64,000 nt of DNA, taken from the NCBI GenBank assembly GCA_964349945.1, contig CAYGIH010000001.1:227718-291717 (forward strand), given 5' to 3'. A program made the position numbers and the translations under genes. Each line of letters begins with the position of its first letter. The first letter of the stretch is position 1. The notes under the pieces are model-generated. The model did no database searches and was not told the DNA's origin. It was given only the letters and a program-made list of their open reading frames with translations. This DNA is from an uncultured Candidatus Saccharibacteria bacterium. Lineage in GTDB: Bacteria > Patescibacteriota > Minisyncoccia > Phycocordibacterales > Zambryskibacteraceae. Of the stretch, positions 14,701 to 44,902 are shown one piece after another.

Positions 14701-15589
14701 AATGCATTATACCCATCTTATCAGTCAAGAAATAAAGGTAAGGAGAGTTTTTTGGGTACAAAGATGCTCTAATAGCATTCATACCGGGATTGTTTAGTGG
14801 ATTCTTTGGTAATCCAATTTCTTTGTATGTATTCATATCTGAATCAACTTGTAGAGGCATATTTATACTAAGTCTTTTCCAAAGAATTCCTGAAGCCATA
14901 GACATTTCTTCTGGTGTTTTTGCCTCTGCTTCTAGTATTGAAGCCATAATTATGATTTCACTTAATGTGCGCTTTGATTTAGATATGTCATCCAATAATG
15001 GAGCAATTTTTTTATTAAAATTATTTTCTAACAAATTTATAGTTGAGGTGGCTGTAGCACTCACCTCTATAAAATATGTATCAGGAAATAAATATCCTTC
15101 TCTCGCTGATTTTAAGAACAATTCATGATCAAATTTACTAAATTTTGGTGTAAATAACTCAGAGATATCTTGTTTTGTAAAACCCTCTGGAATTGTGATT
15201 CTAACTTCCTCTATGTTTCTCATTCCATGTAATATTCTCCACGCAAGTAGAACAGAGTTCTCTGGAGCCTTTAAATAATAGTCACCCGCTTTCATTTTAT
15301 TTTCCCCGCCCAAAAGAATTGCAAAGCTTCTAAAACCAATAGCCGAACGAACTATGTCCTTTTGCTTTAAATCAATTGATAGCGTGTATAAACCAGATCC
15401 TTCTTTTATATTGACGATGCTCTTTGATGGGAAATTAGTTGGAGGACTAATTAAAAGGATATAAAAAAATAATATTAAAAATAAAATTAAAAAAATAACA
15501 TTCTTTCTACTCTGAAAATTATACGTTTTAAGAAAACCATCTAACCAACTAAATAATTTTTCTGCACGAGATAAAAAGGGGTTCTCCAT
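14645..15589 (-). CDS. YceG/MltG-like endolytic transglycosylase paralogue (membrane-anchored)
   Basis: N-terminal TM helix. C-terminal 'GLPKNPLNNPGMNAIRASLYP...YLYF' YceG motif. The annotated 3' end overlaps the mnmA start by 56 nt. Confidence 0.7.
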   Translation of the reverse strand: MENPFLSRAEKLFSWLDGFLKTYNFQSRKNVIFLILFLILFFYILLISPPTNFPSKSIVNIKEGSGLYTLSIDLKQKDIVRSAIGFRSFAILLGGENKMKAGDYYLKAPENSVLLAWRILHGMRNIEEVRITIPEGFTKQDISELFTPKFSKFDHELFLKSAREGYLFPDTYFIEVSATATSTINLLENNFNKKIAPLLDDISKSKRTLSEIIIMASILEAEAKTPEEMSMASGILWKRLSINMPLQVDSDMNTYKEIGLPKNPLNNPGMNAIRASLYPKNSPYLYFLTDKMGIMHYARTFDEHKANKAKYLNK

Positions 15590-15594
15590 AGAAG

Positions 15595-16800
15595 CTACAT
15601 TGGTAAATTCGAAGGAGCTTCTCCCTTTTTAGAAGGTAAACGAGCAAGGGTAGGTGTAGCTGCCACTGTAGAACTAGGGAAATGCCATATAGTGGCCAAC
15701 TCCTCAGATGTCAGGATAAATGGTTTGCCATGGAAATGTTTGAATGGAGAGTTGAAAAATGATCGCCTCTTATAAGCTTCAAGTAGATTAATCTCATTTT
15801 TTCTCTTTCGGATACCCTTAAAATCCTGCCATGGATAATCGTAGCTTGCGTTAAAACTGGGTTTGAATCCATTCAAGTTATTAGAACCAAATTGTTTAAA
15901 ACTCCCTAAGAGACCCCCAATATTGTTTTTATTTAAAACATCCTTTTCTGCTATGTACGCAGCCCTAATCATTGTGTCAAAAGCTGGCTTAGCCAATGTT
16001 CTCTCTATTGCCTTAATCGTGTCATTTTGTGATTCTGATAAATTCAAATAACTAGTCTTCTTTTCATCAGCTGTCTTAAGTGTCGCTTTCTTTAATATTT
16101 CATTAATTTCTTTTTTAACTCCATCTGACCAATCAGGTTTAAGAGAAAGTCGACCAAATTTTATTCCTTCTTTTGTGTGTCCTTGCACTAAAATTTGAAT
16201 CCAAGCTTGCTCTCCTTTTTTTAATGAACCAAGAAATTCAAGTGTGGGTACTATTGGATCATTTTTATATTCCTCTTTTGGATCTTTATCCAGACCATAC
16301 TCTACATAAGTTTTTATCGGATATGCATCTGCCTTTGTGAGGGCAAACTGACCAATCCATCCAAACGAAATCTTCTCTGGATTATAATGAACATCTAAAG
16401 TGTAATCTTTAGCTTCGTGTACCTCTACATTTGGAAATTGAGCATAAAGTTGTGCTTCAATAATATTTTTAAATTTTGGGGAGGTCCAAATATAAAAATG
16501 AACATGCCCTCCTATGGAAGCTATTTCAAGCGAAAACCAAGATCTGACTCTGCCTTTAAAATATACATCTATTAAGCTCCCCACACTCGTTTGATGAAGA
16601 GTATTCATAAATATTTCCATTGATAACGGAGACTTGAGAATCTCATTCGGTATTTTAATCTCAAGAAGAGTACTGCCCTGTTCTTTTATATACTCACGTC
16701 TCTTATAATTCATCCAAGTATCAAACCAAAACAATAGAATAAACACTGGCACCCAAATAGGAGCGTAGTATTCTAATAGAGAAACAGCAGTCATTAACAT
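15595..16800 (-). CDS. Hypothetical protein with N-terminal TM helix (401 aa)
   Basis: Hydrophobic N-terminus 'VSLLEYYAPIWVPVFILLFWF'. No recognised catalytic motif. Conserved-looking C-terminal 'ILTSEELATIWHFPS'. Confidence 0.5.
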   Translation of the reverse strand: MLMTAVSLLEYYAPIWVPVFILLFWFDTWMNYKRREYIKEQGSTLLEIKIPNEILKSPLSMEIFMNTLHQTSVGSLIDVYFKGRVRSWFSLEIASIGGHVHFYIWTSPKFKNIIEAQLYAQFPNVEVHEAKDYTLDVHYNPEKISFGWIGQFALTKADAYPIKTYVEYGLDKDPKEEYKNDPIVPTLEFLGSLKKGEQAWIQILVQGHTKEGIKFGRLSLKPDWSDGVKKEINEILKKATLKTADEKKTSYLNLSESQNDTIKAIERTLAKPAFDTMIRAAYIAEKDVLNKNNIGGLLGSFKQFGSNNLNGFKPSFNASYDYPWQDFKGIRKRKNEINLLEAYKRRSFFNSPFKHFHGKPFILTSEELATIWHFPSSTVAATPTLARLPSKKGEAPSNLPM

Positions 16801-16834: not shown

Positions 16835-17917
16835 CTATGCAACTGAATATTTTCCTTCTTTGTCTTTCTTGAAGAATTTGCTGTTCTGAAGATTTACCAT
16901 AATAGTATTTTCTTTCACATACCTCTCTTTGAGAACTTTTTCAATAATTTTATCCTTACTGAGTGGTCCATCTTTCTCCAAAATCTTTTTAATAACATCC
17001 TTGACTACTCCGGACATATAACCCCATTCTGCAAGAGCGTATAAACCTCGTCCCACCAAAACAAATCTTGGATCCTTTATTAATTCATTATGTGTTGTAG
17101 CTACATGTGCTTTTTTGTCAAAATATTGAGAAATGGCCTTTGCTACTTCTTTAAAGTGTATAGGTGACCCATGCTTTCTTATAACCAAGAAAGCATAATC
17201 CCTCATACCTTTGGCATTTACATTTGGGGAAGTAGTTTTACCCCATTCACCTAGAGGGTTTTTGCCAATTTTATGAGAAATAGATAACCATCTCTTTATA
17301 ACTTCTTCATTTTTATATTTCTCATTTATATCCTTAACTTCATCAAGAAAATCATTAATAAGGTCACTCTCAACGACCAATTCATCATCTGAAAGCTTTG
17401 TGTATAATTTCCTTATTGCATTCTGAATTTTCTTTGCGAGCTCTGGGTCGACGTGCCATCTATGTTTAAATTCTTCGTCTTCTTTCTCCTTTTTAAATTC
17501 ATCTCCGATTACCAATAGAAAATTTATGTGATTTTGTGTAACTTGATCCTTAGATAAATGCTTCAATAAATCTTTCTCTGCCACAATACCCCCTAAGCTT
17601 AGAATCAATTCTTTTAATTCAGTGAATGCTAGTTGAGAATCCTTATATGACTTTGACTTGCGAATAGCTGCCAATGAGTGATTTTCAATCTGACGAACTC
17701 TTTCTCTAGTAATCCCATACTTCTTTCCAATAGAATCTAGAGTCATTTTTGTTGCCTTGGTGCCGAGTCCATATCTTGATTCTATGACATCTCGACCTCG
17801 TTTAGTGAGCCCAGAAAGAAGTGACTTGGTCACTTGTTTTGGCTTGAAGCTTAATGTTATTTTTTCACTCATATGTTTATAAAGTTTATTTGTATCACTT
17901 GACGCTATATCTGTCAA
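16835..17917 (-). CDS. Sigma-70 region-4-like HTH protein with C-terminal HARE-HTH-like domain (putative RNAP-associated regulator)
   Basis: 'DVIESRYGLGTKATKMTLDSIGKKYGITRERVRQIENHSLAAIRKS' closely matches the sigma region 4.2 pattern. The C-terminal 'FVLVGRGLYALAEWGY' resembles the HARE-HTH motif of the RNAP delta subunit. Confidence 0.5.
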   Translation of the reverse strand: MTDIASSDTNKLYKHMSEKITLSFKPKQVTKSLLSGLTKRGRDVIESRYGLGTKATKMTLDSIGKKYGITRERVRQIENHSLAAIRKSKSYKDSQLAFTELKELILSLGGIVAEKDLLKHLSKDQVTQNHINFLLVIGDEFKKEKEDEEFKHRWHVDPELAKKIQNAIRKLYTKLSDDELVVESDLINDFLDEVKDINEKYKNEEVIKRWLSISHKIGKNPLGEWGKTTSPNVNAKGMRDYAFLVIRKHGSPIHFKEVAKAISQYFDKKAHVATTHNELIKDPRFVLVGRGLYALAEWGYMSGVVKDVIKKILEKDGPLSKDKIIEKVLKERYVKENTIMVNLQNSKFFKKDKEGKYSVA

Positions 17918-22873: not shown

Positions 22874-24925
22874 CTACTGCATAGAGTTAATTTCTGCTTG
22901 TAGCAATACAATCAATTGTCTAATCAAATCTCTCAATTGAACCTTGATTGATTCTATTTGCTGAGCAACAGCCGCAGCATTTTCTGTCTCCGCACCAAGG
23001 ACACGTCCTACGGCTACAGGAGAAGCTTGAGATGGAAGTGATGAAGCAATTCTATTCGCTCCACTGCGTCCACCTGACCTTACTTCTGAGATGGGATCTA
23101 GGTCGCCAAAGGTTGTGAAGTGATATGTCCAGATAATTGTATTTCCAGAATCAGCTACATAACATTCACCAGAAGTGATACCAGGGACTGTCGCACTTGT
23201 ACATTGTGTTGATATGAGATGCCACTCTATAGAGCCTGCTGGTTTATAACCAACTCTACCTGTGACACCCGGAAGTGTAATTTTCACCGCTTTGTCGAAA
23301 GTTAAAGTGAAAAGAGGAGAACCCATTTCAATGACCATATCACCTACTGAGAAACTTGCAGGAGCTGTTCCCGAAGTGCTCCCAACTGTTGGAGCAGACA
23401 TTACTCCATCCCAACCAGCAGCTGTGACTGTTGTGTCAGCGGGAATTTCTACCGTTGCTATACTCGAAGTAAGTGTAGTCTCGGGAATTAGTCCCGTGCC
23501 AGTGACGTCGTCAATAAGTGAATCATAATTTATAGTTGCTCCCACAACGCTACCCAATTCGATTGTAACTGGTGTAGTTGCAGTGACAACAACTTCTTTT
23601 TCTGTTTCAGTTACCGTAGCAGTGCCAGTTTCATCTGGAGTTGTCTGACCTACTGCAAGTAAACTAAATACTCTTGTATTTCCATTATCAACATGAGAAT
23701 ACTGGTGATTTGTATCAATAACTGAAACTGCCTTAGTAGTGTCATCTTCCCAAATAGCAGTAGATTCTGTGTGAGAGCTTGTGCCATTTACTGTTAATGT
23801 AGCAGGACCAACTACTCCATTCCCCAAGTCTACGTTAATACCTCCCCATGAGTTATTTGCAGTTGTAATGTTGTTTACTGTCACAATCGAACCATTAACT
23901 GTTATACCTGATTTGTTGTTATTTGACGAAGTAACAGTATCAAGAATCACATTATTTGCTACGTAAATATTAAACCCATGAATTCCGGTACTTCCGGTTC
24001 CATTTTCAACTAAATTCTTAATTGTTACATCACTACTAGTAATTGTCATGGCAGAATTTGAACCATTGGTTACATTTGCGAATAGTGTATGGCCCAAACC
24101 ATCTATTGTTAGGGCCTTGTTAACAACAATTTGTGACGTTGTCGTTATATCAGAACCCAGTAGAACTGTGGCACCAGCTGAACTGTCTTCCATTACGTCT
24201 AGAAATGCTGCTAAATTTGATGCCTTTGAATACGATAATTTGTAACCACCGTTCCAATTTGAATGAACATAATCATAGTAACTTCCTGTAAAAGAATTAT
24301 TTGTCGCAAGTGACTGTTCATTACTTAGAGTTATTGTTGAGGAAGTTGTGCCACCCATTCCAACTCTTGACATATCTATTTCCTCTGCAATTAGAATTGC
24401 AGTTGAAGACCAACCAGGAACAGTTGCTCCATAACCCACAAAAGCGTTTCCAGTCGTATTAAGATTTGGAGTTGCACTACCATATGGCCAGACAACCACG
24501 CCGTTTCCAACTCCACCTCCAGCTGCTACTGCATCAGGATTGGGCATCTCAAATCTACAATTTGTAATATTCGCTGATTTTGAAACAACATTTACTGCAT
24601 TCTTCAACGAATCACTTCCACCCCCCCGGTTGTATACATTAAGACCGTCTAATGTATCATTGTCACCCTTAAGATTAAAAGTTCCATAAATCTTATTTCC
24701 ACTTGTACCATTAATTGTCACATTAGAGGATGTTACCTCATAAAGCGTATACTCTGTTGTGCTTCCCAATATGCCATCAACAGTAATAATATCTCCAGAG
24801 ATTGCGCTTGAAAGCGCGGCTGTTAACTCTGTTGGTGTTGTTACAGTTGTAGCTGCATAAGCATTTGCTGTAAATACAAAAAACATTGCAAGAAAAGCAA
24901 TAGAAACAAATCTAAGATTTTTCAT
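22874..24925 (-). CDS. Secreted parallel beta-helix (pectate-lyase-fold) repeat surface protein with Thr/Ser-rich region and C-terminal coiled-coil tail
   Basis: Signal peptide 'MKNLRFVSIAFLAMFFVFTANAYA'. Repeated 'NxTIxNxxF/GN' beta-helix rungs. 683 aa; low-complexity T/S/G-rich stretch. Confidence 0.6.
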   Translation of the reverse strand: MKNLRFVSIAFLAMFFVFTANAYAATTVTTPTELTAALSSAISGDIITVDGILGSTTEYTLYEVTSSNVTINGTSGNKIYGTFNLKGDNDTLDGLNVYNRGGGSDSLKNAVNVVSKSANITNCRFEMPNPDAVAAGGGVGNGVVVWPYGSATPNLNTTGNAFVGYGATVPGWSSTAILIAEEIDMSRVGMGGTTSSTITLSNEQSLATNNSFTGSYYDYVHSNWNGGYKLSYSKASNLAAFLDVMEDSSAGATVLLGSDITTTSQIVVNKALTIDGLGHTLFANVTNGSNSAMTITSSDVTIKNLVENGTGSTGIHGFNIYVANNVILDTVTSSNNNKSGITVNGSIVTVNNITTANNSWGGINVDLGNGVVGPATLTVNGTSSHTESTAIWEDDTTKAVSVIDTNHQYSHVDNGNTRVFSLLAVGQTTPDETGTATVTETEKEVVVTATTPVTIELGSVVGATINYDSLIDDVTGTGLIPETTLTSSIATVEIPADTTVTAAGWDGVMSAPTVGSTSGTAPASFSVGDMVIEMGSPLFTLTFDKAVKITLPGVTGRVGYKPAGSIEWHLISTQCTSATVPGITSGECYVADSGNTIIWTYHFTTFGDLDPISEVRSGGRSGANRIASSLPSQASPVAVGRVLGAETENAAAVAQQIESIKVQLRDLIRQLIVLLQAEINSMQ

Positions 24926-30615: not shown

Positions 30616-31809
30616 TTATATCCTAAATCCCTTGCTTCGCAATTTACGGTGATAGGTTATAGCGAACCTATGAGCTTCAGTGTTCGCAAGGAGAATTGAT
30701 TTGCCCCATTTTTCTACAGTACCTTTGAGGCCCAAAATATCTTTAGCTTTATGCCTTTCATCCTTTACTACAGAAACAATTTCGATTAGGAAGCCTCTAT
30801 CTTTCAAAATACTTCTAGCTGCATTAATCTGCGCAGTACTTCCGTCTATGACTATTAAATTTGGAAGAGACCATTCTGCATGACCAAGACGTCGTCTAAT
30901 TATTTCCCTTAAATTCGCTGTATCATCTATACTAACTTTTTTGTTTTGTCCAATTATTTTAAACTTTCTGTATTGATCTTTAGCCAATTCTCCATCTATA
31001 ACTACAGTCATCACCCCAACAGTATCTTTACCTGAAAGATGCGCAATATCAAAAGCCTCTATTCTATATGCGCTTTCATTATTATCTCTTTCTATATCTC
31101 TTCTAATTAGTGCAATATCTTGAATATGCTCTAGAGAGTAGATGGTTCTTTTCAACTGCTCAGCTTGCTCAAACCTTTCTTCTTTGGCCGAAGATTTCAT
31201 CTCTTTCTCTAAATCCTTAATAAGCAAATTTTTTTTGGCTTCAAAAAATAGTTTTATGTATTTAATTCTTTTTTTATATTCCCTTTTGTTCATTAACCCT
31301 GCACAAACTCCAGGACATAGTCCAATTTGTGAGTTGAAACAGGGTTTCTTCATAGTGCATTTGTTATCTCTATATGGGAATATTCGTCTAATTATCTTTA
31401 AAGCTTCTCTTAATTCACTACTATTTGGGAATGGACCGTATGTGCCGTTACCACGAGTTATAAATATTTGAGGAAAGTCTTCGTCGGTGACAGTCACATA
31501 GTTATAACTCTTATCATCTTTCTCTCTCGAATTAAAATACGGTTGATGTTTCTTTATTTGATTAGCTTCCAGAATCAAGGCTTCAAGCACTGATTGAGTT
31601 TGAATAAATTTTATATCTTGAGCCCTTTCTAACATTTGTACTAATCTTGGTCCACGAGTATTCATGAGGTCTCTGGAGAAATAACTTTTCACTCTGTCTC
31701 TCAAACTGGTAGCCTTGCCTATATATAAAATTTCTTTTTTTGGTCCAAAGAAAAAATACACCCCAGGAGCGTCAGGTAATTTGAGTTTTTTATAGCCTTG
31801 ACTGTTCAT
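30616..31809 (-). CDS. uvrC: Excinuclease ABC subunit C (compact UvrC, about 397 aa from the internal ATG)
   Basis: GIY-YIG 'GVYFFFGPKKEILYIGKATSLRDR'. The 59-codon N-terminal extension of the track ORF depends on a GTG start running through a GC-rich island and is probably spurious. Confidence 0.8.
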   Translation of the reverse strand: MNSQGYKKLKLPDAPGVYFFFGPKKEILYIGKATSLRDRVKSYFSRDLMNTRGPRLVQMLERAQDIKFIQTQSVLEALILEANQIKKHQPYFNSREKDDKSYNYVTVTDEDFPQIFITRGNGTYGPFPNSSELREALKIIRRIFPYRDNKCTMKKPCFNSQIGLCPGVCAGLMNKREYKKRIKYIKLFFEAKKNLLIKDLEKEMKSSAKEERFEQAEQLKRTIYSLEHIQDIALIRRDIERDNNESAYRIEAFDIAHLSGKDTVGVMTVVIDGELAKDQYRKFKIIGQNKKVSIDDTANLREIIRRRLGHAEWSLPNLIVIDGSTAQINAARSILKDRGFLIEIVSVVKDERHKAKDILGLKGTVEKWGKSILLANTEAHRFAITYHRKLRSKGFRI

Positions 31810-31864
31810 TATTTCTATCTTACTATCATAAAAGACTAAGCACAAACCCTTTCTGAGAGGCACT

Positions 31865-32038
31865 ATGACTGTCGCCAAGGACGGCCAGAATGGTCCACGA
31901 GCCGAAAGAACTGTTCGTGAACTCGACAAGGAAACTCTCAATTTGCTCAACAGTGCAACTCCTGACAACTCAGCACATGTTGACACAAGAGTGAGGAGCG
32001 ACGGAGTAACCGAAACCAGACCAGCATCGTCTGAGTAG
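31865..32038 (+). CDS. GC-rich small ORF (57 aa, hydrophilic, likely disordered) with SD and terminator; coding status uncertain, RNA alternative
   Basis: GAGAGG lies 5 nt before the ATG. The ORF ends inside the terminator hairpin. Antisense to the flanking genes. Confidence 0.3.
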   Translation: MTVAKDGQNGPRAERTVRELDKETLNLLNSATPDNSAHVDTRVRSDGVTETRPASSE

Positions 32039-32061
32039 CAGAGCTAGCGCTCTGCTTTTTT
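32038..32061 (+). terminator. Intrinsic terminator on the plus strand (GCAGAGC-uagc-GCUCUGC followed by UUUUUU)
   Basis: Perfect 7-bp stem followed by T6 on the plus strand. Overlaps the uvrA stop codon on the opposite strand. Confidence 0.65.
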
Positions 32062-34683
32062 CTTACTCTTTTTTAATATTTTTCTTAGATAAACACCTGT
32101 ATGAGTATCTGTGTTTGCCACTTCTTCCGGTGTCCCACAGGCGACTAATTCCCCACCACTATTTCCACCTTCTGGGCCAATATCTAATACGTAGTCACAA
32201 CTTTTAATAAAATCTAAATTATGTTCAATGACTATAACTGTATTACCTTTGTCTACTAGTATTTGGAGAATTTCTATAAGCTTCTTTACATCCTCATAAT
32301 GAAGTCCAATTGTTGGCTCGTCCAAAATATATATGGTTTTTTGATGTTGAGGACGATAAAGCTCCGAAGCAATCTTCACTCGTTGAGCCTCTCCACCAGA
32401 GAGAGTGGTGGCTGACTGACCGAGTTTTAAATAGCCTAGCCCCACATCACTCATACATTTTAATCTGTCATAGATAGCAGGTATATCCTCATAGAAAGTC
32501 TGTGCCTCCTCAACTGTCATTTCCAATACCTGAAATATATTTTTCTTTTTATATTCAACCTCTAACGTCTCTTTCATAAACCTCTTACCCTTACAGACAT
32601 CACAAGGCACATAAACAGTAGGAAGAAAATGCATTTCAACTTCAATCATCCCATTGCCTTGACATGTCTCACATCTACCACCCTTCACATTGAACGAAAA
32701 TCTATTAGCCTTCCATCCACGTGCACGTGCTTCTGTAGACTCAGCGAACAAATCACGAATAAAAGTAAACGCTCCAGTATATGTGGCTGGATTACTTCGA
32801 GGAGTTCGACCGATTGGAGATTGATCAATCATAATCGCTCTCCCCAGATACTCACTGCCAGTGAAAGATTGTGCATTGTATGTTTCTGCACTTCTATATC
32901 TCTTCTCTAATCGTGCTTGTAGATTTTTATATAAAATTTCATAAACAAAAGAAGATTTACCTGAGCCTGACACTCCGGTGACTGCAATTAGACGATTTAA
33001 AGGAATGTCCACATTCAAGTGCTTAATGTTGAATATTTTTCCAGCGCGAATTTTTATTTCCCCCTTCTCACCTGTTCTACGTACTTCTGGGGTTTCAATT
33101 TTTGTTTCCTCTCGCAGATATGAAAGTGTGAGCGACTTTGAATCATTTTTCTTGGCAGTAAGTAAGGTGTCCAAATAGTCAGCCACCACCACGTGTCCTC
33201 CATGAGTACCTGCACCTGGACCTATATCTACAATATAATCAGAAGAGTAAATTGTATCTTCATCATGCTCAACAATGAGTATGGTGTTTCCTAAATCACG
33301 TAGTTCATGGAGAGTTTTAATAAGCCTATCATTATCTCTACTGTGTAGTCCTATCGTTGGCTCATCGAGCACATAAAGTGCTCCCACGAGCCCAGAACCG
33401 AGCTGAGATGCAAGTCTAATGCGCTGTGCTTCTCCACCCGAGAGAGTGTGCGCCCGTCTATCTAGGGTCAAATAATCAATGCCTACATTCAACATAAATT
33501 CTAATCTGGCCTCAATTTCTTTGGTCACCACCTTAGAAATATTCTTCTCTCTAATTGTTAATTTAAGTTTCTTAAAGAATTCATTTGCATCATGAATAGA
33601 CAGAGACACTAATTCAACAATATTCTTGCCACCAATCAAAACATGCAGAGCCTCTTCTCTGAGTCTCTTACCTTTACACTTTTCACACGGAGTACTACCA
33701 AACAAATATTTTGTCCCTAGACCATTACATTCTGGACATGCTCCGTAAGGAGAATTAAATGAGAACAAACGAGGTTCAATTTCTGGGAAGGAGAAACCGT
33801 CTTTTGGACAAGCCCACTTCGCAGACATAAGGAATTCTTCTGCTTCTTTTTGTTCTTTTTTTGGTTTCTGTTCATTAGCCAAATCTCTAAATCTCACTAC
33901 CAAAAGTCCATCTGATTCATGAATAGCTTTCTCTATTGCTTCACTCAACCTTTCGTTGGCAGTTTTCTCATCTGTCTTAAACTCATTCAAACTAATCGAA
34001 TCAACCAATACTGATATGTTGTGCACTTTGGTTTTAGTTAAAACAATTCTCTCTCGCAGTTTTTTTCTTTCTCCATCGACTAATACTTCTGTGTAACCCT
34101 TACCTAATAAGTCATACAAAAGTTGATAGTATTCCCCTTTTCTCCCTCTTACTATTGGAGAATATATTTCCACATAAACAGGCAATTCAAGTTTTTTATT
34201 TTTTGGTTTACTGGATTCATATTCACCAATTTTCTCCAATACAAAAGTTTTTATTTCTTCGTTAGAAAGTTTTTTTATCTCACTTCCGCACACCAAACAA
34301 TGTGGTCGACCAATGCGTGCATACAAAATTCTTAGATAGTCATAAATTTCTGTGATAGTAGCAACTGTTGAGCGTGGATTATTAGAACGAGATTTTTGAT
34401 CAATCGAAATGGCTGGTGAAAGACCACTAATCTCATCTACATCTGGCTTTTGCATTTGCTTCAAAAACTGACGAGCATATGAAGAAAGTGATTCTACATA
34501 ACGCCTTTGTCCCTCGGCAAAAATAGTGTCGAAGGCCAAGGAAGACTTGCCCGAACCAGAAAGTCCAGTGAATACAGTCATTTTGTTGCGTGGCATCTCC
34601 ACACTTAAGTTCTTTAAATTGTGTGTTCGAGCGCCCTTCACTATAATTTTATCTTCTTTGTTTTTATTTTTGTTTTTATCCAT
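32044..34683 (-). CDS. uvrA: Excinuclease ABC subunit A
   Basis: Two ABC modules ('[10 protein letters not shown]', 'GVSGSGKSS') with zinc-finger Cys clusters. 879 aa. Confidence 0.95.
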
Positions 34684-34769
34684 ATACTCAAATTCCCCAC
34701 GGTTTGGCCCATGGGGTTTGACACGAACGGATTATATCATCCTAAATAATTCTTATCCACTTTTTTCTA

Positions 34770-35127
34770 TATAAATAAAAATTACACGTGATATTTTAAA
34801 TAAGGGTCAGTTCCTTGTTAAACCTTAAAGCACTGGGCCATGCTAACCTTCGCAGAGTTCAAGCAGAGGAGCTGCACGGAAAAAATTCCATATGCAAGAC
34901 GTGGAATTGCATGGGCTGAGGCACAGAGACTCGGAGAGGGAAACCAAGTCTATGAATGTCTCTTTCACAAACACTATCATGTTGGTCGGCCTGCATCGAA
35001 GCAGATAATTAGGCGCATGTTACTCAAGCTTTTGGTTTTTCGTGAAGTAGAGAGAAAGAGAAGGCACCATCGCAGGATGCGCTTTCTCAATCGTCCTGGT
35101 GCACGCAGGCAACACTTCAATTACCGC
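34770..35127 (+). ncRNA. Candidate structured RNA or foreign mini-gene: GC-rich island between uvrA and uvrB ending in a plus-strand terminator; class unassigned
   Basis: About 50% GC against an AT-rich background. Contains a 98-aa Arg-rich ORF (34840..35136) with no SD, typical of translating a structured RNA. Antisense to both flanking genes. Confidence 0.3.
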
Positions 35128-35156
35128 GCAGCCTAGATATTGGGCTGCTTTTTCTT
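35128..35156 (+). terminator. Intrinsic terminator on the plus strand (GCAGCC-loop-GGCUGC followed by a U-run)
   Basis: 6-bp GC stem with an 8-nt loop, followed by TTTTTCTTTTC. The uvrB stop codon lies inside it on the opposite strand. Confidence 0.6.
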
Positions 35157-37166
35157 TTCTAATTTTGCTTCGAGCATTCTGATTTCATCCCTTATAAGTG
35201 CTGCTGTTTCAAAGTCTAAATCTTTCACCGCTTCTTCCATTTCTTGCCTCTTCACTTTTATAAATTTCTTTGGATTTTTATTAAACAAAGCTTCATCAGT
35301 TTCCATGAGCAATCCAACAGCATTATGATGTTCTCGCTCAAGGGTGTCTGTAATATCTTTAATTTTCTTTTTGATACTAATCGGAGTGATGTTGTGCTTT
35401 TTGTTGTAGGCCATTTGTATTTTCCTTCTTCGAAGCGTCTCACTCATTGCTCTTTCTATAGATCCAGTGACATTGTCCGCATAGAGAATTACTTTGCCCT
35501 CAAGGTTTCTGGCTGCACGACCAATAATTTGAATCAATGATGTTTCTGAACGAAGAAAACCTTCTTTGTCTGCATCAAGTATTCCTATGAAAGTCACTTC
35601 AGGAAGATCTAACCCCTCTCGTAGAAGATTCACTCCAACCAAACAGTCAAACGTGCCCTTTCTAAATTCTGTAAGGATCTCTATGCGTTCTATGGTTTTT
35701 ATCTCACTATGTAAATACCTTGCCTTTATCTTTTTCTCCTTTAGGTATTCAGCCAAATCTTCGGCCATTTTCTTAGTCAGAGTAGTAGCTATCACTCGTC
35801 CACCTTTCTTAATAGCTTTTTCTGTTTCTTCTATGAAGTCTTTCACTTGCCCTTCATACTTACCTTTGCTCTGTATTGGGCGAACTGTCACTTCTGGATC
35901 AATAAGACCGGTTGGACGAATCACCTGCTCCACCAATTCCCCACTATGTTCTAGTTCAAATTTTCCTGGAGTAGCGCTGGTAAATATTATCTGGCCGACT
36001 CTTTCCTTAAATTCTTCTATCCTAAGAGGTCTATTGTCTCTAGCACTAGGTAATCTAAAACCATGTTCAATAAGAGTATCTTTTCTGGATTTATCTCCCG
36101 CATACATACCTCCGATTTGCGGGAGTGAGACGTGGGACTCATCAATGATAGTCAAAAAATCTGGTGTACCATCTAGTTTATGAGGAAAATATGAAAGCAA
36201 AGTGTCTGGAGCTTCCCCAGGTCTTCTGTTTGAAAAAAGCCTGGAATAATTTTCTATCCCATTGCAATAACCCACCTCTCGAATAAGTGCGAGGTCATAA
36301 GAAGTTCTGCGCTTTAATCTTTCAGCTTCGAGTAACTTCCCTTCTTTTTTGAATTTTTCTAATTGTTCTTCTAGTTCTAATTTGATTTTTTGTATTGCTT
36401 TCTTGTTTGTATCATCATTAGTGATGAAGTGCTTCGCAGGGAAAAGGAAAAATGAATCTGGTTCACTAATAATTGTTCGACTGACAGCATCAATACGTTT
36501 TATAGATTTGATTTGTCCTTCTTCTAATTCAATTCTATAAATTATCCTTTCTCCTGTGGGCATTATCTCTACTGCATTACCTAAAGCCCTAAATGTCCCT
36601 GGCTTCACATCAGCATTTGTTCTAGAAAAATGAATATCTATAAGATCGCGTATAAAATCAGCACGACTAAGTTTGTCCCCTTTCACTATCTTCATGTTCA
36701 CCCTCTCATATTCTGCTGGAGAACCAAGGCCATAAATACAAGATACAGAAGCTACAATTATTACGTCCTTCCTAGTAAGTAAGGCTTGGGTCGAAGCATG
36801 ACGAAGTCTATCTATCTCTTCATTAATCATCGCCTCCTTCTCAATATAAGTATCTGTGACCGGCATATAAGCCTCTGGCTGATAGTAGTCATAGTAAGAC
36901 ACGAAGTAGTGCACTGCATTGTCTGGGAAGAATTCTCGATATTCTTGGGCTAACTGTGCCGCAAGGGTTTTGTTGTGCGCAATGACCAAGGTTGGCTTAC
37001 CAATTTTCTCTATCACATTCGCCGCGGTGAAAGTCTTTCCAGAACCAGTCACGCCCAAAAGAGTTTGATATCGTTTACCTTTCCTTAGTCCTTCGACCAA
37101 CTCTTTGATCGCTTTTGGTTGGTCTCCAGCTGGTTTAAAGTCATTTTTTATCTTAAAAACTGTCAT
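35133..37166 (-). CDS. uvrB: Excinuclease ABC subunit B
   Basis: 'LLGVTGSGKTFT' Walker A, helicase motifs, C-terminal UVR domain ('ALIRDEIRMLEAKL'). Confidence 0.95.
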   Translation of the reverse strand: MTVFKIKNDFKPAGDQPKAIKELVEGLRKGKRYQTLLGVTGSGKTFTAANVIEKIGKPTLVIAHNKTLAAQLAQEYREFFPDNAVHYFVSYYDYYQPEAYMPVTDTYIEKEAMINEEIDRLRHASTQALLTRKDVIIVASVSCIYGLGSPAEYERVNMKIVKGDKLSRADFIRDLIDIHFSRTNADVKPGTFRALGNAVEIMPTGERIIYRIELEEGQIKSIKRIDAVSRTIISEPDSFFLFPAKHFITNDDTNKKAIQKIKLELEEQLEKFKKEGKLLEAERLKRRTSYDLALIREVGYCNGIENYSRLFSNRRPGEAPDTLLSYFPHKLDGTPDFLTIIDESHVSLPQIGGMYAGDKSRKDTLIEHGFRLPSARDNRPLRIEEFKERVGQIIFTSATPGKFELEHSGELVEQVIRPTGLIDPEVTVRPIQSKGKYEGQVKDFIEETEKAIKKGGRVIATTLTKKMAEDLAEYLKEKKIKARYLHSEIKTIERIEILTEFRKGTFDCLVGVNLLREGLDLPEVTFIGILDADKEGFLRSETSLIQIIGRAARNLEGKVILYADNVTGSIERAMSETLRRRKIQMAYNKKHNITPISIKKKIKDITDTLEREHHNAVGLLMETDEALFNKNPKKFIKVKRQEMEEAVKDLDFETAALIRDEIRMLEAKLEKKKQPNI

Positions 37167-38394: not shown

Positions 38395-39411
38395 TTATCT
38401 CTTCGCTATTATAGATTTCTTATAAACATCCAAATGGTCAAGGGCTACACCAGTTCCTTTAGCAACACAATAAAGTGCATCTTTGGCTAAAACCGCTTTC
38501 ACTCCGGTTCTACGAAAAACTAATTCAGGAAGGTGTCTAAGCATTGAAGAACCACCAGTCATAATGATACCTCTATCAATAATATCTGAAGAAAGTTCTG
38601 GTGGAGTTTCTTGGAGAACATCTTTTATTGCCTTAATCATTTCTCTTAGCTCCTTACTTATTGCTTTAGTAATCTCGTTTGATTTTATTTCAATTGTTCT
38701 TGGGAGGCCTAAAACATAATCCCTACCCTTCACACTCATCACTAATTCCTCATCAATGGGCATAGCCGAACCAATTTTTATTTTTATATCTTCTGCGGTT
38801 TTATCACCGATTGCAAGATTATATGTTTTCTTTATATAGTCTGCGATAGCTAAATCAATTTTGTTGCCAGCCACTTTCACTGAGGTTGAAGCCACAATAC
38901 CTCCAAGAGAAATAACCGCCACGTCTGTGGTACCCCCTCCAATATCAACAATCATATGTCCAGCGGCCTCTTGGATAGGAATACCCGCACCTATCGCTGC
39001 GAGGATTGGCTCTTTCACCACATATGCATTTTTAGCTCCAGCTTTAATAGCTGCTTCTACTACCGCTCGTCGTTCCGTGGAAGTTACTCCAGCTGGCACA
39101 GAAATCAAAACATCTGGTTTGAAAATATTCCATTTACCTAATGCTTTGTTAATGTAATATCGAAGCATTGCTTCAGTCACTCTATAATCCGCAATAACTC
39201 CATCCTTCATAGGTCTATATGCCACAATGTTGTCTGGTGTCCTACCAATCATGGTCTTAGCTTCTGCACCTATAGCAAGTATTTTGTTGTCATCCTCAGA
39301 AACAGCCACCACAGAAGGCTCATTAAGAACAATGCCTACTCCAGGCACAAAAACGAGTATATTTGTAGTACCTAGGTCAATTCCTAGTTTTTTTGTCCCA
39401 AAAGCTGTCAT
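38395..39411 (-). CDS. mreB: Rod-shape determining actin homologue MreB
   Basis: '[14 protein letters not shown]', 'IVDIGGGTTDVAVIS'. Confidence 0.9.
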   Translation of the reverse strand: MTAFGTKKLGIDLGTTNILVFVPGVGIVLNEPSVVAVSEDDNKILAIGAEAKTMIGRTPDNIVAYRPMKDGVIADYRVTEAMLRYYINKALGKWNIFKPDVLISVPAGVTSTERRAVVEAAIKAGAKNAYVVKEPILAAIGAGIPIQEAAGHMIVDIGGGTTDVAVISLGGIVASTSVKVAGNKIDLAIADYIKKTYNLAIGDKTAEDIKIKIGSAMPIDEELVMSVKGRDYVLGLPRTIEIKSNEITKAISKELREMIKAIKDVLQETPPELSSDIIDRGIIMTGGSSMLRHLPELVFRRTGVKAVLAKDALYCVAKGTGVALDHLDVYKKSIIAKR

Positions 39412-39439
39412 TCCAATATGATACCGTTATAATAGCCTT

Positions 39440-41353
39440 ATGAAAAGAGAACGAAAAAGCGACGTACTTAAAGTAGTAACTGTCATCCCTGTGAGTAAAT
39501 CAATGCTTCGTTCGACCCTTTCTTACTTCACCAAAGATGATGTCTCTATCGGTTCATTTGTAAAAATTAGCATTAGAAATAAAACTAGTCTCGGTTTGGT
39601 GACGAATGTGGCTAGCGCAAGATCAGTAAAATCTGACTTGAAAAATTCCTCCTTTGCACTAAAGAAATTATCAAAAGGAAACTCTGCAAAACTTTCTGCT
39701 GGGTTTATTAAAGCTTGCGAACAAACTGCCTTTTATTATGCAACCACGACTGGAAGCGTCCTTAGTACTATATTACCTAAATTTTTTCTTGAATTTCCTG
39801 AACTTATCCAAAGTTACAAAAAAAATGAAAATAAATCAGATACATTGCATGAACCTTATCTAATTCAATTACCACTAGAAGAAAGATTTGGCGAGTATAA
39901 AACTATAATTCGTGAATCATTTGCACGGAGCAGTTCTGTACTATTCATTGCTCCCACTATTGAGGAAGCTCAAAGATCATATGAAATCTTATCCAAAGGT
40001 ATACATGAGTACGCTTTCACTACCGTTGGCCAAAGCCAGAAAAAACTAAAAGAAATATTTATTGAATGTCACAAAGAGAAACACCCAATTATGCTTATTA
40101 CTACTCCGTCTTATGGGGCATTTGATAGACCAGACTTAAATACTATCATTCTAGAAAGAGAAAATTCTCGGTCATATAAAACTCTTTCTAAACCATATAT
40201 AGACATAAAAACATTTTTTGAAATGCTGGCCAAGGAAACTGGCAAGACACTAATTCTCGGTGATTCTGTACTATCTATAAAATCCCTTTGGTTAGAAAAG
40301 CAAGGCAAGTTTGCTGAGTTGTCTCCATTGAAATGGAAAACTCGCTTTGATACACAGACAAGGATAATAGATATGAAGGCACCACTCATTAGTGAAGATG
40401 AGGTTCAAAAATTTAGAATACTTTCAAAGGAAATTATTGAACTTATTAATAAGTCTATTAGTGAGAAAAAAAAAGTTTTTCTCTTCGGAACTCGTAAGGG
40501 ATTGGCTCCATCAACAATATGTGTTGATTGTGGAAATTTACTTGAATGTTCAAATTGCAAAGCGCCTTTGGTACTCCATGAGAGCAAGGGAAAGGAGAGA
40601 ATTTATCTTTGTCATGCCTGTGGAGCCAAAAGAACTTCTGAGACCAGATGCGACAAATGCAATAGTTGGAATTTGAATCCATTGGGAATAGGTATAGATA
40701 AAATTGCGAACGAAGTTAGAAATGAATTTCCCACAGCAAATGTGTATGTCTTAGACAAAGATAAAGCCACCACACCTCAAAAAGCTTCAGCAATTATTAA
40801 TAAATTTCTAAATGATGACCACGGTATACTCGTGGGAACTGAATTAGCTCTACTTTATACAGAGAAAGTTCCTTATGTGGGTGTAATATCACTTGATTCA
40901 TTATTTTCTATCCCAGATTTTAGTGTTAATGAAAGAATATTTTATTTAGTAAACAGAATCATAGAAAAATGCGAATCTCAATTTATAATTCAAACAAGAA
41001 ATATTGGACGAGAAATCCTTAGTCTAGCTACCAGAGGTGACATTCTCGAGTTTTATAGAAAAGAAATTCAAGAAAGGGATGAATTACAATATCCACCCAT
41101 CTCTCTATTCATTAAGGTTATCACTGAAGGTGCATCAATAGATCTAGAAAAAAAATCTATCTTCCTGCTTCAATGTTTTGGTGAACACAATCCAGATTTT
41201 ATTAAATCGAAGGGTATGAAAAGTGGCAAAATTAGCCTTTCGATGATCATTAGATTAAAGCGCGGTGATTGGCCAAATAAAGACTTGATTGAAAAATTAC
41301 TTTTGCTAAGTCCTGAATTTTTGATTAAAGTAGACCCTGAAAGCATCATATGA
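39440..41353 (+). CDS. PriA-like primosomal helicase homologue with degenerate Walker A/B but intact Cys-rich zinc-ribbon region
   Basis: Cys-rich region 'CVDCGNLLECSNCKAPLVLH...LCHACGAKRTSETRCDKCNS' matches the PriA lobe-2 insert. Motif Ia-like 'VLFIAPTIEEAQ'. Walker A position reads 'FGEYKT' (no GxGKT), and the DEEH-box position reads 'ERENSRSYK'. Confidence 0.6.
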   Translation: MKRERKSDVLKVVTVIPVSKSMLRSTLSYFTKDDVSIGSFVKISIRNKTSLGLVTNVASARSVKSDLKNSSFALKKLSKGNSAKLSAGFIKACEQTAFYYATTTGSVLSTILPKFFLEFPELIQSYKKNENKSDTLHEPYLIQLPLEERFGEYKTIIRESFARSSSVLFIAPTIEEAQRSYEILSKGIHEYAFTTVGQSQKKLKEIFIECHKEKHPIMLITTPSYGAFDRPDLNTIILERENSRSYKTLSKPYIDIKTFFEMLAKETGKTLILGDSVLSIKSLWLEKQGKFAELSPLKWKTRFDTQTRIIDMKAPLISEDEVQKFRILSKEIIELINKSISEKKKVFLFGTRKGLAPSTICVDCGNLLECSNCKAPLVLHESKGKERIYLCHACGAKRTSETRCDKCNSWNLNPLGIGIDKIANEVRNEFPTANVYVLDKDKATTPQKASAIINKFLNDDHGILVGTELALLYTEKVPYVGVISLDSLFSIPDFSVNERIFYLVNRIIEKCESQFIIQTRNIGREILSLATRGDILEFYRKEIQERDELQYPPISLFIKVITEGASIDLEKKSIFLLQCFGEHNPDFIKSKGMKSGKISLSMIIRLKRGDWPNKDLIEKLLLLSPEFLIKVDPESII

Positions 41354-41886
41354 AAACCTTAATCAAGCAAATGACGGCACCTGTTCTGAGAGAGCAAGCA
41401 AAACACGTCAAAATAGAAGAGATAAAAACCAAAAAAATCCAAACAATTTTGGATAAGATGAAAAGCGCCCTCAAAAAGGAGGAGGATGGCGTGGCTATAG
41501 CCGCGCCCCAAATAGGAGAAGGTTTACGAATTTTTATAATTAGTGGTCGAACAATTTCGATTATAAATAACGAAGGTGAAGATATAGACAAAAATATCAT
41601 ATACCCCGATCAAGTTTTCATAAATCCAATAATTAAAAAACTATCAAAAACAAAGAAGAAAATGGAGGAAGGATGTCTTTCTGTTAGGTGGTTATATGGA
41701 CAAGTAGAGAGAAGTACAAAAGCCACAATAGAAGCCTATGATGAACACGGTAAAAAGTTTCAGAAAGGAGCCTCTGGACTAATGGCTCAAATATTTCAAC
41801 ATGAAGTAGATCACTTGAACGGTATACTTTTTATTGATAAAGCAGAAAATATAGAGAATATTCCTCCACAAAAAAATGCAAAATAA
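41350..41886 (+). CDS. def: Peptide deformylase
   Basis: 'GVAIAAPQIG', 'EGCLSV', 'QHEVDHLNG' motifs. Confidence 0.92.
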   Translation: MKTLIKQMTAPVLREQAKHVKIEEIKTKKIQTILDKMKSALKKEEDGVAIAAPQIGEGLRIFIISGRTISIINNEGEDIDKNIIYPDQVFINPIIKKLSKTKKKMEEGCLSVRWLYGQVERSTKATIEAYDEHGKKFQKGASGLMAQIFQHEVDHLNGILFIDKAENIENIPPQKNAK

Positions 41887-43819: not shown

Positions 43820-44902
43820 CTACTTTCCCTGTCCGTAATACTTCTTCAGTTGCTTCACGTGGTCAGCATAGGTATCTGAACAATGAAATCCTCCTCTTCT
43901 ATCATGAAAATAGAACAGACAAGTAGTTTTAATGGGATTAAGAGCAGCAAGGATAGCAGCCACAGAAGGGTTGGCTATGGGGGCTGGAGGCAATCCAGAA
44001 TTCAAATAAGTATTATACGGTGACTTTATATATTTATCTTTGGATAAAACAGTTGGCCACCAGATTGAAGTGCTCTTGCTACTGGCCCTTGCATATTGGA
44101 GAGTAGCGTCTATCTGTAGATTCATACCTTTAAAGATTCTGTTCCAAATAATGCCTGATATTTCTCTCATGTCTTCTGTGCCCAAAGTCTCTCTTTCTAT
44201 AAGTGACGCGATTGTTAAGGCGGTTTTGAGTGGCACAATTTTCTCTACAGATGCACCATAGTGAGAAAGTACTTCTTCGCTGAATCTTTTATTTACTAAC
44301 TCTTGCGCTTGTTCTGGGGTTGTACCAAGATTAACTAAATATGTTTCTGGGAAAAAAGAACCCTCAATATGCGGTAGCAAGGAACCACTCGGCGCTGTCA
44401 AAAAATTAGTTCTATCATCCGTATCCCAAGAAAGGGCCTTAGAGAATAAATTCGCAACTTGTTCTTTTCTTAGACCGGGTGTAATGGTGACTAGTTTGCC
44501 TCCTCCAGCGAATGCCAGATTTTGATACACGGACGTGTTTGCTAAGGCTATTGAAATCCATTTATATATATCCCCGACCGTTTCAGAAATATTAAAAACC
44601 GAGGCTTGAAGTGGAGAATCTGGACTAGTTAAATACTGATTAACTAACTCGTTCTCTGTTATAGTTTTATTTTGAGGGTCCACAGTTACTGGGAATTGAC
44701 TCTGTATGTTTGAGGCTCTTCGTTCTTGCCAATATTTAACTTGAACAATAAACACTGCGGGCAGAACCAGGATTAAACATCCAACTATGAATAATGCAAT
44801 AAATGTCTTGCGAAATTTCTTTATTGAAGCATTAAAATTATTTAATACCATGATCTTTATAATTATAATCATATTTGCTTGAATCACTAAATTTGATATC
44901 AT
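43820..44902 (-). CDS. mltG: Endolytic murein transglycosylase MltG (YceG)
   Basis: N-terminal TM helix. 'YNTYLNSGLPPAPIANPSVAAILAALNP...YFHDRRGGFHCSDTYADH' canonical MltG motifs. Confidence 0.85.
   Translation of the reverse strand: MISNLVIQANMIIIIKIMVLNNFNASIKKFRKTFIALFIVGCLILVLPAVFIVQVKYWQERRASNIQSQFPVTVDPQNKTITENELVNQYLTSPDSPLQASVFNISETVGDIYKWISIALANTSVYQNLAFAGGGKLVTITPGLRKEQVANLFSKALSWDTDDRTNFLTAPSGSLLPHIEGSFFPETYLVNLGTTPEQAQELVNKRFSEEVLSHYGASVEKIVPLKTALTIASLIERETLGTEDMREISGIIWNRIFKGMNLQIDATLQYARASSKSTSIWWPTVLSKDKYIKSPYNTYLNSGLPPAPIANPSVAAILAALNPIKTTCLFYFHDRRGGFHCSDTYADHVKQLKKYYGQGK

Follow-up and report, generated by a model that had tools for sequence, protein, structure and literature searches.

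The stretch of DNA analysed here, in the following referred to as the window, comprises 64,000 nucleotides from an uncultured bacterium labelled Candidatus Saccharibacteria (assembly GCA_964349945.1, contig CAYGIH010000001.1, positions 227,718 to 291,717 of the forward strand). Between mreB on one side and def and fmt on the other, the window carries an open reading frame (ORF) for a protein related to PriA, the replication-restart helicase, in which the motifs for binding and hydrolysing ATP are replaced by other residues. The gene, its neighbours and the domains and former motifs of its product are listed in Table 1.

With regard to gene order, an earlier note on this DNA, which was made from its letters, had described a divergent mreB at a distance of 28 bp as well as def and fmt downstream of priA, and we confirmed this arrangement. 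It recurs at related loci: among the best 80 of these, def is located downstream in 76/80, fmt is located downstream in 71/80, and a divergent mreB is found upstream in 70/80. Furthermore, a Clostridia record is annotated as coaBC-priA-def, and the gene order of Bacillus subtilis is priA-def-fmt likewise. The conserved priA-def-fmt position suggests that this is the ancestral priA locus and, consequently, that the gene is an orthologue and not a side copy. In addition, the overlap between the start of def and the stop codon of priA suggests translational coupling of the two genes.

Table 1. Genes at the priA locus and domains and former motifs of the encoded protein (positions are those of the window).
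Feature	Residues or motif	Positions	Strand	Basis or remark
mreB, divergent		38395..39411	-	Pfam MreB_Mbl, E 1.4e-132; 28 bp upstream of priA
Promoter-like site	CTGTCA-17-TATAAT	39405..39433	+	consensus match only
priA-like ORF	637 aa plus stop codon	39440..41353	+	ORF list, homology, fold
3'-DNA-end-binding domain	aa 11-118	39470..39793	+	PF17764, alignments
Linker, poorly conserved, 21 residues	aa 119-139	39794..39856	+	hhalign gaps, pLDDT
RecA-like lobe 1	aa 140-300	39857..40339	+	DSSP, pLDDT 93-98 over aa 141-300
Former Walker A (motif I)	Q143-LPLEER-F150 (E. coli G224-VTGSGK-T231)	39866..39889	+	profile alignment to 4nl4
Former Walker B (motif II)	E239-R240-E241-N242 (E. coli D320-E321-E322-H323)	40154..40165	+	profile alignments, hhalign
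Aromatic-rich loop remnant	P252-Y253-I254 (E. coli W333-R334-Y335)	40193..40201	+	alignments
Former motif III	G274-D-S-V277 (E. coli G355-S-A-T358)	40259..40270	+	profile alignment, hhalign
RecA-like lobe 2	aa 301-552	40340..41095	+	motif IV core, motif V kept; motif VI lost
Cys-rich region within lobe 2	aa 358-415	40511..40684	+	eight Cys, CxxC pattern
Former motif VI	aa 503-511 LVNRIIEKC (E. coli Q580-VAGRAGR587)	40946..40972	+	alignments
C-terminal domain, beta-alpha-beta fold	aa 553-637	41096..41350	+	DSSP, pLDDT, Foldseek alignment
def (peptide deformylase)		41350..41886	+	Pfam Pep_deformylase, E 4.3e-43; start overlaps priA stop, 4 nt
fmt (methionyl-tRNA formyltransferase), short	247 aa	41876..42619	+	Formyl_trans_N, E 7.4e-26; overlaps def 11 nt

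Homology, predicted fold and domain layout

Based on the NCBIfam model for PriA (TIGR00595), residues 154-566 of the protein were matched with an expectation value (E) of 1.8e-57, and the score of 195.1 bits misses the curated equivalog cut-off of 230.35 bits. Within Pfam, the 3'-DNA-end-binding domain (PriA_3primeBD, PF17764) was detected above its gathering score (residues 16-113, 26.0 vs 22.7 bits), the family Zn_ribbon_PriA scored below its own gathering cut-off (19.1 vs 26), and no helicase domain was found above threshold in the scan of this protein. Taking the single window sequence as query, the PriA sequences of the Klebsiella and E. coli crystal structures were retrieved with E 2.5e-23; with a profile of 112 family sequences, this value improved to 1.2e-50. 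A comparison of the family with seven canonical PriAs from five phyla using hhalign resulted in a probability of 100 and E 3.6e-78. The overall identity between the window protein and canonical PriA is about 18%. Most family members with an NCBI name are called 'hypothetical protein' and, in combination with scores below the curated PriA cut-off, this means that metabolic and replication inventories may wrongly call restart absent.

The predicted structure leads to the same assignment. An AlphaFold2 model calculated with the family alignment as input showed a mean predicted local distance difference test (pLDDT) score of 90.2 and a predicted template modelling (pTM) score of 0.90. In a Foldseek search against the Protein Data Bank, the nine best matches were all PriA chains with template modelling (TM) scores of 0.63-0.74, including 8fak_H (E 1.4e-35, TM 0.71) and, as the best, 6dcr (TM 0.74), while the next family, Mfd, reached merely 0.3-0.4. 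The window gene, which belongs to a genome of the Parcubacteria (Paceibacteria/Minisyncoccia), is therefore a priA orthologue by homology, fold and position. This is in line with the earlier note, where its product had been described as PriA-like.

For all conservation counts given in the following, we used 455 unique full-length family members that were pooled down to 30% identity. In the 3'-end-binding domain, the pocket residues named for E. coli PriA (PMC5778457) can be traced to the window protein. Here, Y18 corresponds to Y29 and K61 to K76, both of which are kept (448/455 and 431/455 members, respectively), and D17 is exchanged for S28, a position occupied by Ser or Thr across the family.

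Lobe 2 retains the core of motif IV (R352-K-G354), motif V (G466-T-E) and the Cys-rich region, which reads CxxC-x5-CxxC-x17-CxxC-x9-CxxC (C361/364, C370/373, C391/394, C404/407). These eight cysteines pair one-to-one with C436/439/445/448/463/466/476/479 of E. coli and are invariant in family alignment A1. The claim of the earlier note that this region is intact was thus confirmed, with the four CxxC pairs starting at residues 361, 370, 391 and 404, and the region is predicted from its Cys pattern to be able to hold two Zn. In the pooled set, C361, C364, C404 and C407 are present in 455/455 members each, and C370, C373, C391 and C394 in 430-445/455. In about 10-25 members, the inner cysteines are swapped, mostly for Ser, Thr or Asp, suggesting that some lineages may have lost one zinc site.

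In canonical PriA, a circularly permuted winged-helix domain of about 75 residues separates the 3'-end-binding domain from lobe 1. This domain is absent from the window protein: the corresponding E. coli residues (about 109-200) are gapped in the hhalign alignment, and a linker sits there instead (residues 119-139), which shows both the lowest conservation and the lowest pLDDT of the whole protein.

Replacement of the ATPase motifs

The profile alignments that confirmed the protein as PriA showed at the same time that canonical motifs I and II are replaced. For motif I (Walker A), the ungapped profile alignment to Klebsiella PriA (4nl4) revealed that all glycines are gone and that R149 stands in the place of K230. 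In the predicted structure, the strand of residues 140-143 is followed by a loop of two residues and then by a helix spanning residues 146-162. As this helix begins only two residues past beta-1, no phosphate-binding loop is predicted, and the P-loop geometry of an active enzyme would not be preserved. Moreover, residues 144-148 carry on average a net charge of about -2.5 across the family, which would be unfavourable for the binding of a triphosphate. The pairing of R149 with K230 is based on the ungapped hidden Markov model (HMM) alignment and the predicted secondary structure, and it is not as secure as the absence of the P-loop; a plain MAFFT alignment with E. coli and the global hhalign alignment scattered gaps around the P-loop and were not relied on there.

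The earlier note had rightly judged Walker A to be degenerate, whereas its placement of the site at FGEYKT (residues 150-155; 39887..39904, + strand) had to be rejected. Profile alignment and hhalign agree in pairing Y153 with E. coli Y234, so that FGEYKT corresponds to E. coli T231-EVYLS236, with K154/T155 equivalent to L235/S236 inside helix alpha-1. The actual counterpart of Walker A is QLPLEERF, five residues upstream, and this shift in register leaves the conclusion of a degenerate site unaffected.

At motif II (Walker B), both alignments and hhalign place the E. coli DEEH on EREN, the first four residues of the sequence ERENSRSYK (residues 239-247) that had previously been proposed as its replacement. 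The Glu in second position, which performs catalysis in DExH motifs, is changed to Arg (R240) in the window protein. The losses continue beyond the two Walker motifs. In the aromatic-rich loop, the key aromatics W333 and Y335 are gone, with P252 and I254 found instead; in E. coli PriA, the exchanges W333A and Y335A eliminate unwinding and leave an ATPase activity that is lowered 12- to 14-fold (PMC5175346). Motif III is changed as well (Table 1), and motif VI has lost both arginines together with a deletion of five residues.

A regular-expression search of the whole protein for GxxxxGK[ST], DExH, SAT or GRxGR gave zero matches, which means that neither a GxGKT nor a DExH motif was found elsewhere in the full protein, where the earlier note had considered that they might lie mis-registered. 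The only GKT tripeptide of the protein (residues 268-270) was evaluated as a hidden P-loop and discarded, as it is located between a helix and a strand and is unconserved (G in 229, K in 75 and T in 60 of 455 members). As an internal control, we inspected UvrB from the same window, in which the canonical GVTGSGKT and DESH are intact, arguing that the loss of motifs is specific to PriA and does not represent a compositional effect.

Judging from sequence and model, it is likely that this PriA is a pseudohelicase, which has lost ATP binding and hydrolysis and has kept the fold along with the modules for recognition and assembly. This supports the suggestion of the earlier note that the protein is ATPase-dead, and it extends the predicted losses to motif III, the aromatics, motif VI and the winged helix.

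Conservation and spread of the replaced motifs

The replaced motifs are common to the 120 top-ranked homologues from the database (42-80% identity), among which all lineage-named members are metagenome-assembled genomes of Parcubacteria/Patescibacteria. When one genome of each GTDB species was scanned with family-specific peptide patterns, relatives were found in 245 genomes. The best 80 of these 245 relatives (35-76% identity) belong to Zambryskibacteria, Taylorbacteria, Campbellbacteria, Paceibacterota and generic Parcubacteria, and those covering motif I all read Q-x4-[ED]-R-[FYLMIV]-x2-[YH]. The 'Saccharibacteria' labels that third parties have given to some relatives are probably loose.

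On a larger scale, an exhaustive phmmer run over 1.84 billion 50%-identity representatives resulted in 1,752 matches at E <= 1e-30, and GK[ST] was absent in all of the best 150 of these matches (31-59% identity). When the search was reseeded with the most distant representative (P0267, 30% identity), again degenerate-motif members alone were obtained. As the phmmer, P0267-seeded and GTDB searches all gave degenerate members only, the boundary with canonical PriA was never reached. By chance, GxxxxGK[ST] occurs at unrelated positions in two family members.

Within the pooled set, the residues that replace the canonical motifs are themselves highly conserved. In the former Walker A segment and the following helix, this applies to R149 (454/455), Q143 (437/455), Glu or Asp at position 148 (417/455) and Y153 (432/455). 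In the former Walker B, position 239 is acidic in 455/455 members (E 387, D 68), position 240 is mostly basic (R 288, K 91, H 25, E 19; R/K/H 404/455, R/K 379/455), E241 is found in 444/455, and position 242 is N in 240, S in 136 and H in 14 members. P252 in the aromatic-rich loop (452/455) and D275 in the former motif III (437/455) follow the same pattern. For lobe 1 as a whole, the mean frequency of the major residue is 0.57, compared to 0.49-0.61 for the other domains when the linker is excluded.

This strong conservation of the replaced residues indicates that the gene is selected and not decaying, and that a new set of motifs has arisen instead of drift. On the basis of the aligned sequences, we conclude that strong purifying selection acts on the replacement residues in hundreds of species, and that loss of the motifs is, as far as the motifs can be read, fixed in a very large family of Parcubacteria/Paceibacteria. 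All members with a lineage name fall within this group. The survey of relatives suggested in the earlier note thus gave no intact P-loop among the 455 members. The note had also regarded the protein as an unusual factor in a reduced genome; the loss of the ATPase site stands, while its view as the oddity of a single genome gives way to a family-wide trait.

Proposed role in replication restart

Previous studies provide precedents for a PriA without a motor. In E. coli, PriA K230R (priA300) has lost ATPase, helicase and translocase activity and has kept primosome assembly (PMC5778457, PMC4504706); priA300 cells are near wild type, and helicase activity is required for some pathways and substrates only (PMC5778457). 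The PriA of D. radiodurans, which carries the same Lys-to-Arg change, shows no measurable ATPase or unwinding, has near normal affinity for single-stranded DNA (ssDNA) and forks, and forms a complex with its own DnaB (PMC4504706). Cryo-electron microscopy of E. coli PriA showed that the fork is recognised through contacts with all three arms and that a shift of the Cys-rich region around the single-stranded lagging-strand DNA exposes a partner-docking surface; with a duplex lagging arm this shift does not take place, suggesting that PriA unwinds the arm first (PMC10175261, PMC13594977).

By analogy, the Parcubacteria PriA would bind abandoned forks or D-loops via its 3'-end pocket (Y29, K76) and via surfaces of the helicase core and the Cys-rich region. 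Once bound to the fork, it could nucleate the return of the replicative helicase to the DNA, either by contacting DnaB directly, as described for D. radiodurans, or by means of another adaptor. It would be unable to unwind a duplex lagging-strand arm, and restart would consequently be limited to forks with an exposed ssDNA lagging template, or a further helicase would be needed. In the light of these precedents, the most likely role of the protein would be that of an adaptor without enzymatic activity, which recognises forks and assists in primosome assembly.

The predicted structure also allows a more specific idea about the former nucleotide pocket. Here, the acidic N-terminus of the helix and Arg149 would face E239-R240-E241 and could form a salt-bridge latch that fixes both lobes in place of the nucleotide; we regard such a salt-bridged latch as speculative. 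Known partner schemes of PriA comprise PriB/DnaT in E. coli and DnaD/DnaB/DnaI in Bacillus. Taking all elements together, PriA might serve throughout the Parcubacteria/Paceibacteria radiation as a structural adaptor, with its pocket rebuilt as a lobe-locking network, a motorless mode of restart and a set of partners that differs from both of these schemes. This complete scenario is a tentative one, and we consider it rather doubtful in its entirety; the number of 50%-identity clusters with such an adaptor PriA possibly exceeds one thousand. If it holds true, restart in these organisms would proceed without any motor step by PriA.

Several observations weigh against the interpretation as a pseudohelicase with adaptor function and latch. 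First, E. coli PriA has been suggested to possess another nucleotide site, weaker than the main one (PMC5778457), and a counterpart might be present here. Second, a few family members show a canonical or near-canonical Walker B (L044 and P0177 with DEEH, P0166 with EEEH, L047 with EHEH, and DEES), so that the decay of Walker B is not uniform. Those of them that cover motif I already show E-R there, and L044 ends at a contig end before motif I; these members may stand midway in the loss of the ATPase site or may have reverted. Third, Pfam scans covering 36/56 predicted ORFs of the window detected no DnaB, loader, SSB or PriB. Fourth, with respect to the latch, a comparison of charges at positions 146-148 and 240 gave a single weak sign in its favour (position 146 is basic in 43% of members with an acidic position 240, n = 21, vs 8% otherwise), and this sign is confounded by phylogeny. 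Finally, the analysis of this genome was confined to the 64-kb window of a contig of at least 381 kb, a point that favours the assumption of a paralogue considered below.

Alternative explanations

Among the alternatives, the protein could be derived from PriA and have taken over another job, for example as a sensor of DNA structure or as a regulator tied to the cell-shape and translation genes, with restart being carried out elsewhere or being absent. The tight and conserved linkage to mreB, def and fmt would fit this assumption, as would the loss of the winged-helix domain and of D17 in the 3'-end pocket and the annotation of most members as hypothetical. However, the priA-def linkage in the Clostridia record shows that this linkage predates the Parcubacteria lineage and is no new association. 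Furthermore, the family conserves the complete Cys-rich region as well as the residues equivalent to Y18 and K61, and an ATPase-dead PriA is able to support restart in E. coli, with D. radiodurans PriA binding to forks and DnaB. Overall, we consider a different job unlikely.

A further explanation would be an inactive extra paralogue that exists beside a canonical PriA from another locus of the same genome. In addition to the restriction to the window, it has to be taken into account that the genome scan was based on family-specific peptide patterns, which a canonical copy would escape. Nevertheless, the gene occupies the conserved priA-def-fmt position in 76/80 species, with priA-def also present in the Clostridia record, and the outward search to 30% identity yielded an intact P-loop in 0/455 members. 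Parcubacteria have very small genomes in which duplicates of replication genes are rarely retained, which likewise counts against a second copy. A paralogue of this kind is thus very unlikely.

Third, the protein could still be an active ATPase or helicase with a non-canonical site, in which Arg149 replaces the Walker A Lys and Glu239/Glu241 bind Mg2+. An Arg at the position of the Lys and the two acidic residues left in the Walker B region would be compatible with such a site, and the core of motif IV and the GT[EQ] of motif V are retained in the family. On the other hand, K230R by itself inactivates E. coli PriA (PMC4504706, PMC5778457). In the Parcubacteria protein, the P-loop glycines are all gone, the segment is strongly acidic and predicted to be helical, and the second-position Glu of Walker B is exchanged for Arg or Lys in 379/455 members; the arginines of motif VI are deleted, and the aromatics that couple to the ATPase are lost. 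We therefore regard residual activity as extremely unlikely.

A pseudogene in decay, or else an artefact of assembly or annotation, for which only the score under the curated PriA cut-off could be quoted, has a negligible chance and is effectively refuted by the conservation data, given an intact ORF of 637 aa, full-length orthologues in 245 species representatives, dozens of invariant positions that include the replaced motif residues, a confident predicted structure and the start-stop overlap of def and priA suggestive of translational coupling.

Returning to the PriA pseudohelicase as the preferred interpretation, its relevance lies in the fact that the sampled members keep the PriA fold, the 3'-end pocket and the zinc region, while the canonical ATPase motifs are lost. 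This would lend support, as a natural experiment, to the view that the indispensable job of PriA is fork recognition and primosome nucleation and not unwinding. In practical terms, a compact PriA of about 630 aa that lacks the winged helix and may be locked by nature could be used for structural work on helicase-independent restart.

Further genes and features of the window

Between the end of the TATAAT element and the priA ATG there are 6 nt, and a Shine-Dalgarno sequence is absent in between. A promoter-like site this close to the ATG and without a Shine-Dalgarno sequence suggests that the priA-def-fmt mRNA may be leaderless. At the other end of this gene group, the C-terminal tRNA-binding domain of Fmt was matched with E 0.0078 over about 40 residues and looks truncated or highly diverged.

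The other genes of the window, which has a G+C content of 32-41%, include the usual housekeeping genes uvrC-uvrA-uvrB, tgt, dnaK, dnaJ, several for aminoacyl-tRNA synthetases, rpoA, rpoB, rpoC, rpoD-dnaG, typA and hpf. The genes uvrC, uvrA and uvrB adjoin one another on the - strand (30616-37166), and uvrA and uvrB are separated by an ORF of 98 aa without a known family on the opposite strand. With 456 aa, UvrC is short: its RNase H-like domain ends 13 residues before the C-terminus, with no helix-hairpin-helix (HhH) domain detected after it, and its GIY-YIG match lies just below the gathering score (21.7 vs 22.6 bits).

Two YceG/MltG-like paralogues are encoded at 14645-15589 (-) and 43820-44902 (-), both matching PF02618 with E of about 1e-51. 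An unusual pairing of an N-terminal sigma-70 region 4 with a HARE-HTH domain was found in a protein of 360 aa (16835-17917, -). Four large ORFs on the - strand, located at 7541-8878 (445 aa), 8906-10042 (378 aa), 15595-16800 (401 aa) and 22874-24925 (683 aa), showed zero Pfam matches at E <= 1e-5.

Comparison with known PriA systems

In full-text literature searches, we found no paper on a case of PriA from Parcubacteria, Patescibacteria or the candidate phyla radiation (CPR), and one co-mention concerns a different phylum. A pseudohelicase PriA of Parcubacteria is thus apparently undescribed, and it was mechanistically anticipated by the work on priA300 and Deinococcus.

The closest known system is the PriA pseudohelicase of Deinococcus-Thermus (Lopper, Boone & Morrow 2015, PLoS One, PMC4504706), and a review from 2017 lists Deinococcus as the sole exception to conserved PriA helicase activity (PMC5778457). 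Both lineages share the change of the Walker A Lys to Arg as well as motifs I and II that are degenerate lineage-wide. For the Deinococcus protein, inactivity and binding to ssDNA, forks and DnaB were shown experimentally, and it serves as the functional model for the Parcubacteria protein. Compared to Deinococcus, taken here by its published description, the whole glycine-rich loop of the Parcubacteria protein is gone and predicted to be helical, and motifs III and VI, the key aromatics and the winged-helix domain are also lost, while the text of PMC4504706 reports nothing beyond the Lys-to-Arg change and a poor fit to motifs I and II.

A search of a plasmid collection with E. coli PriA yielded no Deinococcus or Thermus PriA sequence. 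Several plasmid-labelled records of 2-5.5 Mb carry priA (e.g. NZ_CP141089.1, CP125156.1, NZ_CP093325.1) and appear to be chromosomes filed as plasmids. In Candidatus Stammera capleta (CP144833.1), E. coli PriA matches with its residues 232-364 only (18% coverage, 29% identity), which may represent another strongly degenerate or fragmentary PriA.

Canonical PriA of E. coli and K. pneumoniae (4NL4, 6DGD, 8FAK) has in common with the Parcubacteria protein the 3'-end-binding domain, the two-lobe superfamily 2 (SF2) core, the C-terminal domain and the CxxC-x4 zinc region inserted in lobe 2 (TM 0.71-0.74). Unlike in canonical PriA, the winged helix, motifs I, II, III and VI and the key aromatics are all gone. 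Two engineered variants of the E. coli protein come closer. The first, priA300 (PriA K230R), carries the same Walker A Lys-to-Arg change, but represents one substitution in an intact motor, whereas in the Parcubacteria PriA the entire site is rebuilt. Moreover, priA300 works through the PriA-PriB pathway and is PriB-dependent, whereas here no PriB is known and none was among the scanned ORFs of the window. The second, the winged-helix-deletion construct 6DCR, has the same domain composition and scores highest in the structural comparison (TMq 0.74). There, the domain was removed from an active enzyme by engineering, whereas its absence in Parcubacteria is natural and is paired with an ATPase site that is predicted to be dead. 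In comparison with all of these systems, the Parcubacteria family would represent the second natural case of a PriA pseudohelicase after Deinococcus, and a larger and more extreme one.

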